64,000 bases of DNA, taken from positions 32,888 to 96,887 of the forward strand of contig DAONEP010000003.1 in assembly GCA_035403165.1 (NCBI GenBank). Reading direction: 5' to 3'. Source of the DNA: Bacteroidales bacterium. Its GTDB lineage: Bacteria > Bacteroidota > Bacteroidia > Bacteroidales > UBA4417. This document shows, one piece after another, positions 2,627 through 63,406 of this stretch (positions are counted from its first letter, which is position 1; each line of letters opens with the position of its first letter). The notes below the pieces were generated by a model. That model made no database searches and had not been told where the DNA came from. It saw nothing but the letters and a program-made list of their open reading frames with translations. The translations under genes and the position numbers were made by a program.

Positions 2627-3562
2627 TTAATCTCCGGTTTCCGGGCTGTAGTGCTTTTGCATCCTCTTATAGAGGGGGTGGTGGCTAAGGATTTCCTCGC
2701 GCAGGTATTCCCGGTTCAGGTGGGTATAGATTTCGGTAGTGATGATGGATGCATGTCCCAGCATTTCCTGAACAGCCCGCAGGTCGGCGCCGCCTTCTAC
2801 CAGGTGTGTGGCAAAGGAATGCCGCAAGGTGTGCGGACTGACATTCTTCCTGATACCTGCCATTTCGACCAGCTCCTTTATGATGGTGAAAACCATTACC
2901 CGAGTCAGTTTTGCCCCCCGGTTGTTGAGGAACAGATGGTCTTCGAAGCCTTTTCTGATCGTCTGATGGACCCGGCATGTCTGTAAATACAGCGTGATTT
3001 GGTCAAGGGCTTTCTTTCCGATGGGTACAAGCCTTTCCTTATCTCCTTTGCCGGTAACGCGGATATACCCTTCGTTGAAATAGATATTACTGATCTTCAG
3101 GTTGATGAGTTCGGAGACGCGCAAACCGCAACCATACAGCGTTTCGATGATGGCGCGGTTGCGTTCACCCTGGGGCTTCGACCGGTCGATGGCATCGATG
3201 ATCTTTTCAATATCCTTTACTGAAAGCACATCCGGCAGTTTGCGGGCGATTTTCGGCAAATCGAGCAGTTCCGTAGGATTTTGATCGGAAAGATTTTCAA
3301 GCAGAAGGTATTTATAGAATGCCCGCAGTCCAGAAATGATGCGCATTTGCGAACGGGCGTTCATGTTGTTTACGTTCAGCCATTTGACAAAATCCTGCAA
3401 TTCGTCAATCGTGATGGCGGAGGGGTTTTTAGAAATGCCGGAATCTTCAAGGTAAACCGTGAATTTGTCGATATCATGAAGGTAGGCTTCCACCGAATTC
3501 GGCGAGAGCGATTTTTCAAGCTTCAGGAAAGCAGCAAATCCGTTTTTAAATGAGTCCCACAT
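2627..3562 (-). CDS. xerD: site-specific tyrosine recombinase XerD
   Basis: Phage-integrase fold with the catalytic region HTLRHSFATHLVEGGADLRAVQEMLGHASIITTEIYTHL. N-terminal SAM-like domain. 311 aa. Confidence 0.85.
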   Translation of the reverse strand: MWDSFKNGFAAFLKLEKSLSPNSVEAYLHDIDKFTVYLEDSGISKNPSAITIDELQDFVKWLNVNNMNARSQMRIISGLRAFYKYLLLENLSDQNPTELLDLPKIARKLPDVLSVKDIEKIIDAIDRSKPQGERNRAIIETLYGCGLRVSELINLKISNIYFNEGYIRVTGKGDKERLVPIGKKALDQITLYLQTCRVHQTIRKGFEDHLFLNNRGAKLTRVMVFTIIKELVEMAGIRKNVSPHTLRHSFATHLVEGGADLRAVQEMLGHASIITTEIYTHLNREYLREEILSHHPLYKRMQKHYSPETGD

Positions 3563-3580
3563 AATGGGCTCAAAGGTAGG

Positions 3581-5119
3581 TTATTGCCGGATAAGTTTCC
3601 CCGTTATAATGTCTCCGGATTTTGGGATCCATCGGAAATAGTAACAGCCCGGTGCGATTTTATAAATATTGAGGATTTCGGTTTGACTTTGTTGCCGCTG
3701 TTCCAAAATGACCCTGCCTGTGTTATCAATAAGCTGAAAAACAGCAGGTAATTGATTTGTTGCAGGTGCAGCAATCGTCAAATAGTCATTTGCAGGATTA
3801 GGGAATAGTTTAATGCTCAAATCATCTCTGCGTTCTTTCATTCCGACCTCCATTAAGGAATCACAGGCAAGCGGAGAACCCCAGATGACATCTCCTTTTT
3901 TGAAATATTTCAGGTCACGGTATTCTTTGCCCCAATATGTCGGATCGTCACAATGATAATAGGGACCGCCAAGACCTTTAAAGTATAAGGTTTGATAATT
4001 GCAAAATCCATCAAAAGTAACAGGCCATAGGCAACCATTTCCATCATCCGACCACATCATCAGATAATCAAAAGCCTTGTAAGGAATACCTTCAGGGCAG
4101 TATTGTGAATTACCTGACATTCCGGTAAAAGGATATGTCCACCAGCCAGATTCAGGTATCATCACAGGTTCCAGCGGTTCCGTATCGAATTGAGGTGTAT
4201 AAGAGGGCGAAACTGTCTGATCAAGAGTATCTTTTAAATAAGAGTAATCTTCTACTCCATTATTGTTTTTATGGTAGGTTAGGGAACAATATTCAAACGT
4301 GTAAAGGACAGAGTCACCAGAAGGATAATCATAACGGCTGAGGTAGCGTGAAACAATGGCTGTTGAATATGTATATGTCCCGCCATAATTGTAATTCTCG
4401 GAATATCCTGCTACATGTAATTCATCACCCGGCTGAAAGTCAAATATATCCAATGTTTTAGGAACCTGGTAGCCGGCGTTGGGATTAGTTTTTCCGATAA
4501 AAGAGTAAAACTTAGGGGAGTAGCTTAATTCATCGAACTTCGGCAACCTGAGCAAACCATAATTCATTCCCAGCATGAGGGACTCCCCGTTTATCGGGTT
4601 TGCAACAATCTGACCTGAAGTATCTTTGCAGTTTAACACGATCACTTTGACATAATCGGCCAGTTCGGGGAAATCAACCAGTTCAATATGATCTACTGTT
4701 GCTTCAATATATTGCAGGCCATTATGATAATTGTAAAAACGCCATGATTCTCCGATTCCAGCCTGGGAATAAATTGTGTAAACATCATTTGAGTCGGAAG
4801 GGGAGAACGGATAAAAAATAAACTGAGTTTTGCCATCCGGATATTCAATTATTTCGTCTCCAAGCCAGGACGCACCGTTTGTAGTCCAGCAACCGTAATC
4901 TGTTTGCCTGATCTGCCTCATGGCAAAGTAACTGGTTTCAGTACCGGAAATAGCCACAGAATCAATTCTCGCTGAAATAATCTGCATGGATGTTGAATCG
5001 TAATAATAATACGTTGCATCCGTTTTCACAGCTTGGTAATACTGGGCTGAAGTATTTAAGGAGAAGAAGAAAAAACAGAAGAGAGCGGCATTAGCTGCAA
5101 AATAAATTCTTATTTTCAT
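3581..5119 (-). CDS. hypothetical secreted protein with T9SS C-terminal sorting domain
   Basis: Signal peptide ending NTSAQ. C-terminus reads IKLFPNPANDYLTIAAP...GCYYFRWIPKSGDIITGKLIRQ. Confidence 0.65.
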   Translation of the reverse strand: MKIRIYFAANAALFCFFFFSLNTSAQYYQAVKTDATYYYYDSTSMQIISARIDSVAISGTETSYFAMRQIRQTDYGCWTTNGASWLGDEIIEYPDGKTQFIFYPFSPSDSNDVYTIYSQAGIGESWRFYNYHNGLQYIEATVDHIELVDFPELADYVKVIVLNCKDTSGQIVANPINGESLMLGMNYGLLRLPKFDELSYSPKFYSFIGKTNPNAGYQVPKTLDIFDFQPGDELHVAGYSENYNYGGTYTYSTAIVSRYLSRYDYPSGDSVLYTFEYCSLTYHKNNNGVEDYSYLKDTLDQTVSPSYTPQFDTEPLEPVMIPESGWWTYPFTGMSGNSQYCPEGIPYKAFDYLMMWSDDGNGCLWPVTFDGFCNYQTLYFKGLGGPYYHCDDPTYWGKEYRDLKYFKKGDVIWGSPLACDSLMEVGMKERRDDLSIKLFPNPANDYLTIAAPATNQLPAVFQLIDNTGRVILEQRQQSQTEILNIYKIAPGCYYFRWIPKSGDIITGKLIRQ

Positions 5120-60103: not shown

Positions 60104-61096
60104 ATGAAATCAAAGAAAAACATTGCCCTGTTAATGGGCGGAGATTCAGGCGAATTTGAAGTTTCAGTGGCCAGTGCAGCCGTCATCAGGAGAAATATAG
60201 ATGAAACCCTGTACAACGTATATCCTGTCCTGGTTCATGCGGGCGAATGGATTTATACGCCTGATGAAAAAACAGGGATTCCTGTGGATAAGAACTCATT
60301 CAGCGTGCTGACCCACAATGAACGGATTTTTTTTGACTGCGCCTTTATAGCCATTCACGGAACCCCCGGTGAAGATGGGAAACTGCAGGGGTATCTTGAC
60401 ATGGCTCATATCCCTTATACAAGTTGTGACCTGACAACTTCGGCCATCACCTTTAACAAGTATTTCAGCAATGACCTGGCTCTTCAATATGGTATGAATG
60501 TTGCCGCTACGGTAATGCTTCGTCGTATGGAATCCTGGGATACAGAATCCCTGATCAGAAAAGTAGGAATGCCATGCTTTGTGAAACCAAACAAAGCCGG
60601 ATCGAGTTGTGGCGTTACAAAAGTTTACCATCCTGAAGATATAGAGAAAGCCGTAAACAAAGCCTTTGCCGAGGATGATGAAGTGCTTGTTCAACAATTC
60701 ATCAAAGGAAGGGAGCTGGCCTGCGGTGTGTTCAGGCGTAAAGGAAATATTGTTGTATTGCCGGTGACTGAAGTAATTCCGAAAAATGATTTTTTCGATT
60801 ACGAAGCCAAGTACACATCAGGAATGTCGGAAGAAATCACCCCGGCATCGTTGACCGGGGAGGAAGTGGCGGAATGCAACCGCATTACAGCTTACCTTTA
60901 TGACAAGTTCAACTGCAAAGGGGTAGTGCGGTTCGATTATTTCCTGGATAACGGCAAATTCTGGTTTCTCGAAGTGAATACCGTCCCCGGCTTATCCGAT
61001 GGCAGTATAGTGCCTAAACAGGCTGTGGCTGCCGGATACAGCCTGAAGGAATTTTTCGGCATCCTCATTGAAGAGGCTCTTGCCGGAACAAAGTAA
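60104..61096 (+). CDS. ddl: D-alanine--D-alanine ligase
   Basis: MKSKKNIALLMGGDSGEFEVS..., HGTPGEDGKLQG, ATP-grasp blocks PCFVKPNKAGSS.G and EVNTVPG. Confidence 0.93.
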   Translation: MKSKKNIALLMGGDSGEFEVSVASAAVIRRNIDETLYNVYPVLVHAGEWIYTPDEKTGIPVDKNSFSVLTHNERIFFDCAFIAIHGTPGEDGKLQGYLDMAHIPYTSCDLTTSAITFNKYFSNDLALQYGMNVAATVMLRRMESWDTESLIRKVGMPCFVKPNKAGSSCGVTKVYHPEDIEKAVNKAFAEDDEVLVQQFIKGRELACGVFRRKGNIVVLPVTEVIPKNDFFDYEAKYTSGMSEEITPASLTGEEVAECNRITAYLYDKFNCKGVVRFDYFLDNGKFWFLEVNTVPGLSDGSIVPKQAVAAGYSLKEFFGILIEEALAGTK

Positions 61097-61110
61097 AGGC
61101 GGCAATTCCC

Positions 61111-61710
61111 TTAGCGGGATGCTGCATTATTCATATTTTTTCTGAGAAATTCACCCAACTTGCCGGCGGCAATGGCCCGGTGGCTTATTTTATTCTTTTC
61201 GACCAAAGGCATTTCGGCAAAAGTGACATCGTAGCCTTCGGGAACGAAAACGGGGTCGTACCCGAACCCTTCTTTTCCCCGCATTTCTTCAATGATCCTG
61301 CCATTGATCACCCCATCGAAAAAGTATTGATCTCCGCCGGTCAGAAATGCGATTACCGTCCTGAATCGTGCCGAACGGTTGGTTACGCCTTTCAATTCGT
61401 TCAGCAATTTGATCGTGTTGGCCTTAAAATCGTGATTGTTGCCTGCATAACGGGCTGAATATACACCCGGGCGGCCATCCAGCGCATCAACTTCCAGGCC
61501 GGTATCGTCGGCAAAACAATCCAGACCAAAATGCTCCCTGACATACTGAGCTTTCTGGAGCGCATTGCCCTGAAGCGTACCGGCTGTTTCGGGGATATCC
61601 TCATGACAGCCTATGTCCGAAAGACCTTTGATAATAAAATGCGGACCTGCCAGGTTCCTGATTTCTTCTAATTTATGCTGGTTGTTCGTGGCAAATACTA
61701 TTTCCCTCAT
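61111..61710 (-). CDS. rdgB: RdgB/HAM1 non-canonical purine NTP pyrophosphatase
   Basis: [17 protein letters not shown]...NA..KA, GFGYDP.F and SHR motifs. Confidence 0.9.
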
Positions 61711-61726
61711 CTATAGTGTTTTAGGG

Positions 61727-62400
61727 GGTGTTGTTCGTGATTCGTTTTGCGTTTTGTGTTATGATTTTTGCATTCTGCGTTCTGCGTTCTGTGTTTCAGC
61801 GTTTCAGCGTTTCAGGTTTTGTTTAGTTGTTAGCCGTTGGCCGTTAGCCGTTAGCCTGGCGTCTTACCCACAACCTTGCACAGGCAGGTAAACTTTTAGC
61901 GTTCTGCGTTTTGTGTTTTGCGTTCTGTGTTCTGCGTTCTGCGTTCTGCGTTTCGTGGAATTCGTAATTGACATTCGTGGAATTTGTGGTTCGTTTTTCG
62001 TGGGCAGGGTTTCAGTGTTTCCGGTTTTGTTTGGCTGTTAGCTTTTAGCTTTTAGCTCTTGGCCTTTGACGTTTTGAGTTTTGAGTTTTGAGTTCTGAGT
62101 TTTGAGTTCTGCGTTCTGCGTTTCGTGGAATTCGTAATTGACATTCGTGGAATTCGTGGTTCGTGATTCGTTGTTCGTGTTTTGCGTTTTGCGTTTTGCG
62201 TTTCGTGGTTCGTTGTTCGTGGGCAGGGTTTCAGTGTTTCCGGTTTTGTTTGGCAGTTAGCTTTTAGCTTTTAGCTCTTGGCCTTTGACGTTTTGAGTTT
62301 TGAGTTTTGAGTTCTGAGTTCTGAGTTTTGAGTTTTGAGTTCTGCGTTCTATGTTCTCGTCCTCCGTCCTCCATTCTCCATCCTCCGTCCTCCGTCCTAC
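61727..62400. repeat. mosaic of tandem heptanucleotide (and one octanucleotide) repeat families with a 170/233-bp higher-order duplication
   Basis: Runs of GTTCTGC/GTTTTGC, TTCGTGG-type, GTTTCAGC, TTAGCCG/TTAGCTT, GTTTTGA/GTTCTGA and CGTCCTC. 61936-62105 and 62106-62338 are near-identical apart from indels of 49 and 14 nt. Confidence 0.92.
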
Positions 62401-62402
62401 CC

Positions 62403-62876
62403 TTATCCGTTATGGTAAGGTTCATTCCTGATGATCGTCATGGCGCGGTACAACTGTTCTGCGAACAGCAACCGTATCATCTGATGGGTAAAAGTCATCC
62501 GGGAAAGAGAGAGAGCGAAATCTGCCTTCTTTTTTATTTCGTCCGATACTCCGAAAGCCCCGCCTATTATAAATACAAGATCCTTAATACCGGTATTCAC
62601 CTGTTTCTGAATGAAATCAGCAAACCCAACCGAGGTATAACCTGTGCCGTTTTCATCAAGCAAAACGATGGTGCATTTTTCCGGAAGCTTTTTTATCAGG
62701 ATTTCTGCTTCTTTTGATTTTATCTGTTGCGGGGTTAAATTTTTACGCTCCCTCAGGTCGGGTATCTCAACCCAATCCACAGTAAGATAGTGTTTCAGCC
62801 GTCCCGTAAAAAGGGAAATGCCTTCCTTGAGGTAGCAGTCGTTAGTTTTCCCGATCATCAGGATGGTTACGTTCAT
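62403..62876 (-). CDS. rlmH: 23S rRNA (pseudouridine1915-N3)-methyltransferase RlmH
   Basis: SPOUT fold, MNVTILMIGKT...LDE.G...S..FA....IGGA.G.......A....SLS.MTF.HQ..R..L.EQLYRA. Start at ATG 62876, downstream of a -7 box. Confidence 0.9.
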   Translation of the reverse strand: MNVTILMIGKTNDCYLKEGISLFTGRLKHYLTVDWVEIPDLRERKNLTPQQIKSKEAEILIKKLPEKCTIVLLDENGTGYTSVGFADFIQKQVNTGIKDLVFIIGGAFGVSDEIKKKADFALSLSRMTFTHQMIRLLFAEQLYRAMTIIRNEPYHNG

Positions 62877-62903
62877 TTCGCCTCCTTTCATACTCCCGAA
62901 TGC

Positions 62904-62911
62904 CAAAGATA
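62904..62911 (-). promoter_or_regulatory. -7 promoter box (TATCTTTG on minus strand) upstream of rlmH
   Basis: Plus strand reads caaagata. It overlaps the ATG start (62906) used by the track ORF and lies about 28 nt upstream of ATG 62876. Confidence 0.45.
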
Positions 62912-63001
62912 GTAACAGGTAATCATTTCCGGGATGACGGTATTATATTTTTCACTACTTTGGTTCGATTTTTGTAATTCAACGAGCATTCAGCGATAGC
63001 A

Positions 63002-63406
63002 ATGAAAAAGATATTTTTAATAATGGCAGGCATGTTGTTTTCCCTTTCTGCGCTGCAGGTTCAGGCTGAGCCGCCTTTGGCAGGCATTCTCGAAAATGTT
63101 GCCGCTGCCATCCGTTCCGGGAACTCCAGGGAACTAGCAAAATATTTTTCGAGTTCGGTGGAAGTTTCCCTTCCTGAGAAAGACGGGTCCTTCAGCAAAG
63201 CTCAAGCCGAAATGGTGATGAAAGATTTTTTCGCAAAGAATCCGCCGGTTTCTTTCACTGTTAATCAGCAAGGTGCTTCAAGCGGCGGGTCCCAGTTTAT
63301 GATCGGATCCTACAAATGTGGCAGTAAAGTGTTCAGAACCTACGTGTTATTCAAGCCCGTAAACGGCCAGTTGTTTATTCAACAGATTGAATTCGAGACC
63401 GATTGA
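63002..63406 (+). CDS. DUF4783-like secreted protein
   Basis: Signal peptide. 134 aa. Conserved position between rlmH and nadC as in other Bacteroidota. Family name recalled from memory. Confidence 0.55.
   Translation: MKKIFLIMAGMLFSLSALQVQAEPPLAGILENVAAAIRSGNSRELAKYFSSSVEVSLPEKDGSFSKAQAEMVMKDFFAKNPPVSFTVNQQGASSGGSQFMIGSYKCGSKVFRTYVLFKPVNGQLFIQQIEFETD

Follow-up and report, generated by a model that had tools for sequence, protein, structure and literature searches.

Between the genes rlmH and rdgB of an uncultured Bacteroidales bacterium (GenBank assembly GCA_035403165.1, lineage UBA4417) lies a spacer built almost entirely from short tandem repeats. It was analysed within a stretch of 64,000 nucleotides, referred to here as the window (contig DAONEP010000003.1, positions 32,888 to 96,887), in which it occupies positions 61711-62402. 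This composite heptamer tract of 692 bp fills the whole rlmH-rdgB gap. It belongs to a known bacterial class, the heptanucleotide long simple sequence repeats (LSSRs) or STRR-like repeats, and is unusual within it for its size and complexity. Both flanking genes lie on the minus strand, with rlmH upstream and rdgB downstream of the tract, and the minus strand is therefore called the sense strand throughout.

Repeat anatomy of the rlmH-rdgB spacer

Autocorrelation of the tract gives a self-identity of 0.62, 0.55, 0.48 and 0.44 at lags of 7, 14, 21 and 28 nt, compared with 0.32 expected from its composition, and further peaks stand at lags of 219 and 170. Array boundaries were resolved with Tandem Repeats Finder (TRF), which returned 11 arrays with a period of 7 or a multiple thereof; super-periods of 14, 21 and 28 nt occur inside them. 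Read on the sense strand the units are GCAGAAC, TCAAAAC, GCTAAAA, CCACGAA, GGCTAAC and GGAGGAC, so that the tract holds at least six different unit sequences, together with one octamer array. All 23 two-copy matches of CARAACNCARAAC in the 64-kb window fall within the tract, where 0.07 would be expected for the window, and outside the tract the window contains neither other lag-7 periodicity nor comparable G+T content. The locus is laid out as follows, with units written on the plus strand and arrays called by TRF unless another source is given:

61111-61710, minus strand: rdgB, downstream of the tract, encoding a non-canonical purine NTP diphosphatase of 199 aa
61743-61796: CGTTTTG/CGTTCTG (CGTTYTG), 7.7 copies, degenerate, the array nearest rdgB
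61793-61819: octamer array GTTTCAGC, 3.5 copies
61829-61856: GTTAGCC, 4 copies
61857-61898: sole non-repetitive island of the tract, with no Rfam match and no inverted repeat
61899-61952: GCGTTCT/GTGTTTT (sense GCAGAAC/ACAAAAC), 7.7 copies
61936-62105: higher-order unit A, 170 bp (alignment)
62030-62057: TTTAGCT, 4 copies, with its unit B counterpart at 62257-62276
62065-62123: TTTGAGT, 8 copies, of unit A, running into 2 copies of GTTCTGC
62106-62338: higher-order unit B, 233 bp (alignment)
62153-62222: degenerate TTCGTKG array interrupted by 3 copies of GTTTTGC, the 49-nt insertion that marks unit B (TRF and alignment)
62284-62348: about 9 copies of TTTGAGT/TCTGAGT (sense TCAAAAC/TCAGAAC), showing super-periods of 21 and 28 nt; the TRF call for 8 copies of TTTGAGT in this second position is 62284-62341
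62358-62398: CGTCCTC (sense GGAGGAC/GGACGGA), 5.9 copies, beginning 4 nt past the TAA stop of rlmH
62403-62876, minus strand: rlmH, upstream of the tract, encoding an RlmH-family SPOUT methyltransferase of 157 aa when read from ATG 62876

The plus strand of the tract is G/T-rich (T 45%, G 27%, C 18%, A 10%), which makes the sense strand of rlmH and rdgB A/C-rich. Within the GGAGGAC sub-array, about six GGAGG motifs that resemble Shine-Dalgarno sequences follow directly on the rlmH stop codon; the phylum for the most part avoids motifs of this kind. The GC skew of the plus strand is positive in all 4-kb bins of positions 1-64000 (0.01-0.09); the plus strand is thus probably the leading strand, and it carries the G/T-rich strand of the tract.

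The autocorrelation peaks at 219 and 170 correspond to a higher-order duplication, in which unit B aligns to unit A. The two units differ by indels of 49 nt (48+1 in our alignment) and 14 nt and by two or three substitutions, at 61996/62215, 62036/62255 and, depending on gap placement, 61984/62154. Re-alignment by hand showed that the last of these appears only with the placement of the 49-nt indel used in an earlier first-pass annotation of the same DNA. The first block, next to rdgB, is colinear with units A and B and much more diverged.

Much of what the first-pass annotation had read from the letters is borne out by these results: a lag-7 patchwork throughout the gap, with the expected peak at lag 7 and the higher-order peaks beside it, a plus strand rich in T and G and poor in A, and indels of 49 and 14 nt between the last two units. 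Its statement that the repeat families recur in the same order in three successive units also holds, with a first unit far more diverged than the others. The near-identity that it described for the last two units stands as well, while its count of two substitutions does not, as three were counted once 61996/62215 had been added. Because the indels come in multiples of 7 nt and are accompanied by a higher-order duplication, the signature of slippage and recombination that it proposed is likewise supported.

Coding potential, transcription and RNA structure

Stop codons are found in all six frames of the tract, between 6 and 13 in each, and the longest open run is 72 codons. Small open reading frames (ORFs) of 40-53 aa within the tract, and plus-strand ORFs of 92 and 129 aa that leave it antisense to rdgB/rlmH, were dropped as repeat-derived and lineage-specific. 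A scan for sigma-70 promoters and intrinsic terminators found no site inside the tract. The Bacteroidetes-type -7 box, TAnnTTTG, occurs as TATCTTTG at 62904-62911 on the minus strand, upstream of rlmH, and is absent from both strands between 60064 and that position. With no promoter or terminator motif in the tract, and with spacers of just 55-146 bp in relatives, the default expectation is that rlmH and rdgB would be co-transcribed, the polymerase reading through the tract from rlmH.

The RNA made in this way would have little structure. The 692-nt sense RNA is predicted to fold at -98 kcal/mol, with z = +0.94 relative to dinucleotide shuffles, 16 of 20 of which fold as well as or better than the tract itself. 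No inverted repeats of at least 10 nt are present in 61600-62520, and therefore no hairpins and no terminal inverted repeats. A search of 60900-63200 against Rfam 15 at permissive thresholds reached best scores of 12-18 bits, compared with gathering thresholds of 50-90, at E > 2. In composition the sense RNA is distinctive: 72% of its 78-nt windows have a C/G ratio of at least 1.5 and at most 20% G, compared with 18% for the minus strand of the whole window. The first-pass annotation had concluded that the region is non-coding, that it has no -7 box although one precedes rlmH, and that its RNA is of low structure. Each of these conclusions agrees with what was found here, and the Rfam scores, which are at noise level, show no match to an RNA family.

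Orthologous spacers in relatives

The rlmH-rdgB neighbourhood was recovered in five relatives, in which the spacer is short:

L010: RdgB identity 86%, spacer 119 bp, no repeats
L141: RdgB identity 75%, spacer 71 bp, (GAAGTTT)x5
L012-L015: RdgB identity 72%, spacer 55 bp, three GAAGTTT-like units
L140: RdgB identity 71%, spacer 101 bp, two copies of the 14-mer GGTCAAARTGCAAA
L213: RdgB identity 70%, spacer 146 bp, no repeats

When these spacers were compared with the tract by local alignment, in search of an unexpanded ancestral skeleton, the scores were no better than those of shuffles. In the GAAGTTT arrays it is G, T and A that predominate on the sense strand, opposite to the A/C-rich sense strand of the tract. 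An apparent lag-7 signal in L012 proved to be a run of N and was discarded. Some heptamer phasing is seen in the rlmH-rdgB spacer of three or four of the six lineages examined. As the spacers of the relatives have either no array or unrelated heptamers, the tract is an expansion that is particular to this lineage and evolves fast, at a position where small heptamer arrays are gained and lost.

Assemblies and strain variation

Three JGI metagenome assemblies (L001, L002 and L004) contain an identical tract of 692 bp. One of these, L002, has 11 differences from the window across 12.2 kb of flanking sequence, and hence represents an independent strain with the same tract. A further assembly (L003/L005; ENA ERZ27257423, k141_950508, 3361-3833) has a tract of 473 bp instead of 692 bp, in which precisely one 219-bp higher-order unit is missing and a single hybrid unit remains, as after a clean crossover between the duplicates; its 12.2 kb of flanks are identical to the window. 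This shorter form is either a true recombinant or an assembly collapse.

Short-read contigs do not pass through the tract. Those of the Logan collection that enter it next to rlmH (L006-L009) break off after about 80 nt, those that enter next to rdgB (L136-L139) after 150-171 nt, and all eight contigs inspected thus end within the tract. Both of its ends were nevertheless recovered independently across many samples, and a variant with 99%-identical RdgB is alone indexed in 61 blocks of the assembly collection. In this 99% strain the 171 nt nearest rdgB are 97.7% identical to the tract, the flanks being 99.0-99.6% identical, and the adjacent octamer family (CCTGAAAC) has gained a fourth unit by conversion of one heptamer, ACAGAAC. 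Simple 7-nt polymorphism between strains was not seen in these contigs, which do not span the tract. The tract therefore exists as a feature of the genome, and real uncertainty attaches only to how many higher-order units it has.

Heptamer arrays elsewhere

A second array, of about seven units (GGACGGA, GAACGGA, GAAGGGA), lies about 2.9 kb from the tract and about 1.4 kb past the 3' end of the window (L001 171-226; about 65389-65444 on extended window coordinates). It starts immediately behind the TAA stop of a gene fragment and precedes a BrkB-family gene. The two genes converge on this 3'-3' gap, a position that allows the array no 5' leader role for either of them. Like the array that follows rlmH, it abuts a TAA stop in sense orientation. 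Apart from these two GGACGGA-type arrays, the remaining 63 kb of the window contain no other.

Scanning 185,579 species genomes for (CARAACN)x4 gave at least 120 stretches, and the organisms were read from 80 of these. Among the matches listed were filamentous cyanobacteria, Chloroflexota, Acidobacteriota, Verrucomicrobiota, Planctomycetota and Nitrospirota and, within the Bacteroidota, Saprospiraceae, Bacteroidales, Flavobacterium, Kordia, Paludibacter and Prevotella. The arrays at the 80 loci examined are mostly 50-200 bp long, the largest being at least 401 bp and cut by a contig end, and they often have arrays of other heptamers as neighbours, with as many as six arrays of unrelated units in several of the 8-kb comparison loci. 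Between co-directional genes the orientation of (CARAACN)n is 18 sense to 24 antisense (120 genome loci, crude ORF calls). Inside ORFs it is 36 sense to 9 antisense, an excess that is due to crude ORF calling; as CARAACN contains no stops in its sense frames, we leave it uninterpreted.

In a metagenome collection that does not include the source samples, the non-heptamer unit core AAACAAAACCNGAAACRCTGAAAC gave two unrelated chance matches. An exact-pattern scan of this kind, with a pattern that matches the tract three times, missed known JGI contigs (Ga0116247_10000140 and others), from which it follows that the collection excludes these samples and that its negatives are weak.

Relationship to known heptanucleotide repeats

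The first-pass annotation recognised no named repeat family in the spacer. This has to be corrected, as the tract falls within a described class, the heptanucleotide LSSRs or STRR-like repeats (PMC4679880, PMC4692102). Heptanucleotides are the most over-represented of the prokaryotic LSSRs according to Mrázek, Guo & Shah 2007, as that work is cited in PMC4679880 and PMC4692102, where it is also credited with the proposal that polymerase slippage is tied to how long a stretch of DNA the polymerase holds. Three tandem heptanucleotides had been reported in Calothrix in 1990 (as cited in PMC4692102), and simple sequence repeats have also been surveyed (PMC2651432). Tandem 7-nt units, an intergenic position, length differences of whole units and rapid turnover identify the tract as an LSSR and as a bacterial minisatellite, or variable-number tandem repeat (VNTR), and it further shares with LSSRs a length beyond chance, a sporadic distribution, changes in 7-nt steps and slippage as the proposed origin. 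It departs from them in joining at least six unit families and an octamer array within 692 bp and in its 170/233-bp duplication, and the density of arrays in its genome appears low, at two in about 66 kb. A CRISPR identity was rejected, given a period of 7 and the lack of spacers, as was that of a telomere-like repeat, given the lack of G runs.

The nearest described systems are the long intergenic assemblages of several heptamers in Gramella, Aequorivita and Elizabethkingia reported by MacGregor 2015 (PMC4679880). In the closest relatives studied there the gene neighbourhood is kept, the spacers are short and repeat-free, and contigs end in the repeats (PMC4679880). These assemblages, in Gramella forsetii, Aequorivita sublithincola and Elizabethkingia anophelis, resemble the tract in belonging to the same phylum, in mixing heptamers and in breaking contigs. 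They were found through the unit TAACTGA, whereas the tract has other units and comes from a different order of Bacteroidota. TAACTGA is absent from both strands of the tract, which is accordingly not a member of the TAACTGA system. The habitat of its organism, presumably an anaerobic digester judging from the JGI sample series, is a further difference.

STRR units of heterocystous cyanobacteria include CCCCAGT, TTGGTCA and CAACAGT. None of them is in the tract, and its organism belongs to the Bacteroidales, so that it is not an STRR in the strict sense; STRRs are also highly abundant genome-wide in heterocystous cyanobacteria. What the STRRs described by Mazel et al. 1990 for Calothrix/Nostoc (cited in PMC4692102) have in common with the tract is the presence of several non-coding families of tandem heptanucleotides in one genome.

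The GGGAATC/GGGGAYT repeats of Xanthomonas and Nostoc (Rehm et al. 2015, PMC4692102) are again intergenic and variable between close relatives, and GGGAATC-type arrays differ greatly in length and sequence among Xanthomonas species between the same gene pairs (PMC4692102). Their runs of three to four G make them capable of forming G-quadruplexes, whereas the bulk of the tract is free of G runs and has GG doublets only in the GGAGGAC sub-array.

A functional precedent for 7-bp repeats is found in Haemophilus influenzae, in which promoter-located ATCTTTC repeats phase-vary the expression of hmw1A and hmw2A. There, too, 7-bp tandem units upstream of a gene change copy number by slippage. The hmw repeats, however, sit between defined promoters and a surface-adhesin gene of a host-adapted pathogen, whereas the tract has no promoter motif and is followed by a housekeeping gene.

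Origin and possible roles of the tract

The layered anatomy of the tract, with its 7-nt units, super-periods, indels in multiples of 7, higher-order duplication and 219-bp deletion variant, points to iterated slipped-strand mispairing and unequal recombination. We consider it probable, with some reserve, that the tract is a non-coding heptamer VNTR that arose by these processes and is passively co-transcribed without a sequence-specific function. Short motifs in the rlmH-rdgB spacer would have been amplified by replication slippage in steps of 7 nt, and blocks of 14, 21 and 28 nt would then have been amplified as well. A block of about 170-230 bp comprising several sub-arrays may subsequently have been duplicated by unequal recombination into a higher-order repeat, each copy of which would have gained or lost heptamers afterwards. 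The tract would in this way have grown within a gene pair whose spacer is short in relatives. It would be read passively as an A/C-rich, structure-free intercistronic RNA, and would be tolerated or, at most, be a neutral spacer that possibly lowers rdgB through Rho-type polarity. None of the results indicates a specific function for the tract.

It is unlikely, though not negligibly so, that the tract acts as an element of the RNA, with about 690 nt of A/C-rich transcript serving as a Rho-loading or protein-binding platform, or as a leader that favours translation, and so setting rdgB relative to rlmH. Its sense RNA is rut-like in composition in 72% of 78-nt windows against a background of 18% and has no secondary structure, the spacer has no promoter or terminator motif, and binding of S1, Csp or CsrA was proposed by MacGregor 2015 for TAACTGA repeats upstream of start codons (PMC4679880). 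Judged from composition, the tract could impose Rho-dependent polarity on rdgB; composition alone does not, however, establish Rho binding. The relatives moreover do without the tract or have unrelated heptamers, in one case G/T/A-rich on the sense strand, similar arrays elsewhere have no orientation bias, and the sister array sits in a convergent 3'-3' gap. The lack of a conserved unit or strand composition, the lack of orientation bias and the 3'-3' sister array together argue against a sequence-specific role in binding RNA or protein, and with unrelated spacers in relatives, one of opposite strand composition, and orientations of 18 versus 24, the sponge, translation enhancer and protein-binding array suggested in the first-pass annotation are left unsupported. 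That annotation had also considered a contingency tract, in which heptamer copy number would switch or grade the expression of rdgB. Such a tract would produce indels of whole units like those that separate units A and B, a length variant like the 219-bp one of a single assembly, and a unit conversion like that between 99%-identical strains, but the repeats span no promoter element or reading frame that their number could disturb, and the tract is unchanged in a strain with 11 flank differences. The product of rdgB is a housekeeping sanitiser of the nucleotide pool, and the gene is untypical of contingency genes. We regard this idea, which finds no support in the spacer, as distinctly improbable.

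An iteron-like, nucleoid or partition site, that is, an array bound by protein at the DNA level, would fit the general architecture of iterons, which are many phased short direct repeats. Such a site is hardly to be expected from at least six different unit sequences that are not conserved in relatives, in a neighbourhood without replication or partition genes, and a phasing of 7 bp does not match the helical repeat of DNA; its probability is very small. Equally slight is the chance that short-read assembly produced the tract or its size. Contigs that stop about 80 nt into the tract on the rlmH side and 150-171 nt on the rdgB side, and one k141 assembly with 473 bp instead of 692 bp, would be expected from an artefact, but the same 692 bp recur in three JGI assemblies, one of them from a strain distinguishable by 11 single-nucleotide differences in 12.2 kb of flank, and the tract ends were found independently in many samples. 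Insertion of a small non-autonomous mobile element, or a templated repeat-adding activity in place of growth in situ, is improbable. The occurrence of GGACGGA-type arrays directly behind a TAA stop at each of two loci separated by 2.9 kb, the scatter of similar arrays across many phyla and viral contigs, and the horizontal spread of heptamer repeats that MacGregor 2015 raised as a possibility (PMC4679880) would suit an insertion. Terminal inverted repeats are absent from 61600-62520, where flanking target-site duplications were not looked for, no further copy is present in the 64 kb, and the unit core had only two chance metagenome matches, a weak negative given that the source samples are outside the collection.

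Several observations do sit uneasily with passive growth by slippage and recombination. At 692 bp the tract exceeds all arrays seen in the 80 comparison loci, the largest of which is at least 401 bp and is cut by a contig end. If polarity carries a cost, neutral growth to this size inside a probable operon would not be expected. The strain with 11 flank differences has an identical tract, which is thus not hypervariable on that timescale. Phasing in three to four of six lineages could mean that the site favours or selects for an array; the rlmH-rdgB spacer may be prone to slippage, or may tolerate or favour an array as such. Taken further, a heptamer array as such would be favoured in this spacer, with unrelated units in independent lineages. 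The 0.7-kb structure-free intercistronic RNA of the present lineage, with more C than G, could then act as a length-tunable decoupler of the two cistrons by loading Rho or releasing ribosomes, or could offer a multivalent platform to a single-strand-binding protein. We think this unlikely, but if it were true the heptamer LSSRs of Bacteroidota would be a selectable regulatory device and not slippage debris.

At present the tract is mostly a well-documented curiosity that adds no new category and illustrates the dominance of the 7-nt period among long simple sequence repeats of bacteria. It is among the largest and most complex heptamer tracts of the comparison set, it sits in a probable housekeeping operon of an uncultured Bacteroidales bacterium, and to our knowledge satellite-like higher-order repeats have rarely been described in bacteria. 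It explains why short-read assemblies break at rlmH-rdgB and, as a VNTR, could be used as a strain marker. It also offers a natural test of what an unstructured, C-rich untranslated spacer of 0.7 kb does to polarity within an operon, in a phylum whose translation initiation and Rho are both unusual.

Flanking genes and other heptamer-bearing contigs

The product of rdgB matches NCBIfam NF011398 with 289.9 bits (cutoff 272), TIGR00042 above its cutoff and Pfam PF01725. That of rlmH matches PF02590, and its top NCBIfam RlmH match (E = 2.5e-58) scores 196.5 bits, under the cutoff of 207 bits. The start of rlmH is ambiguous, giving a protein of 157 aa (ATG 62876), 162 aa (JGI calls) or 167 aa (TTG 62906). 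Since the -7 box at 62904-62911 overlaps the longest of these ORFs, one of the two shorter starts is favoured.

The (CARAACN)x4 pattern also occurs in 69 IMG/VR contigs (L144-L212), a sizeable share of which are giant-virus metagenome-assembled genomes (GVMAG), and several of these contigs have at least four consecutive matches. Within 8 kb of an uncultured Bacteroidales contig (L022, CAYUQP010000008.1, 871-6053) there are six arrays of six unrelated heptamers (CTAAGCC, GACCAAA, CGACTAW, CGACYGC, TCAAAAC/GACTCAW and GGAACCY), a density much above that of the genome of the window. Long arrays of CCCAAAA, CCCTAAA and CCCCAAA are present in contigs of metagenome-assembled genomes assigned to Bacteroidia/Bacteroidota (L018 322-409, L019 1998-2160 and L051 2137-2258). 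The CCCAAAA/CCCTAAA type is complementary to eukaryote-type telomere repeats (TTTTGGG, TTTAGGG), and these three arrays could either stem from eukaryotic DNA contaminating the bins or be heptamer arrays that arose convergently in bacteria.

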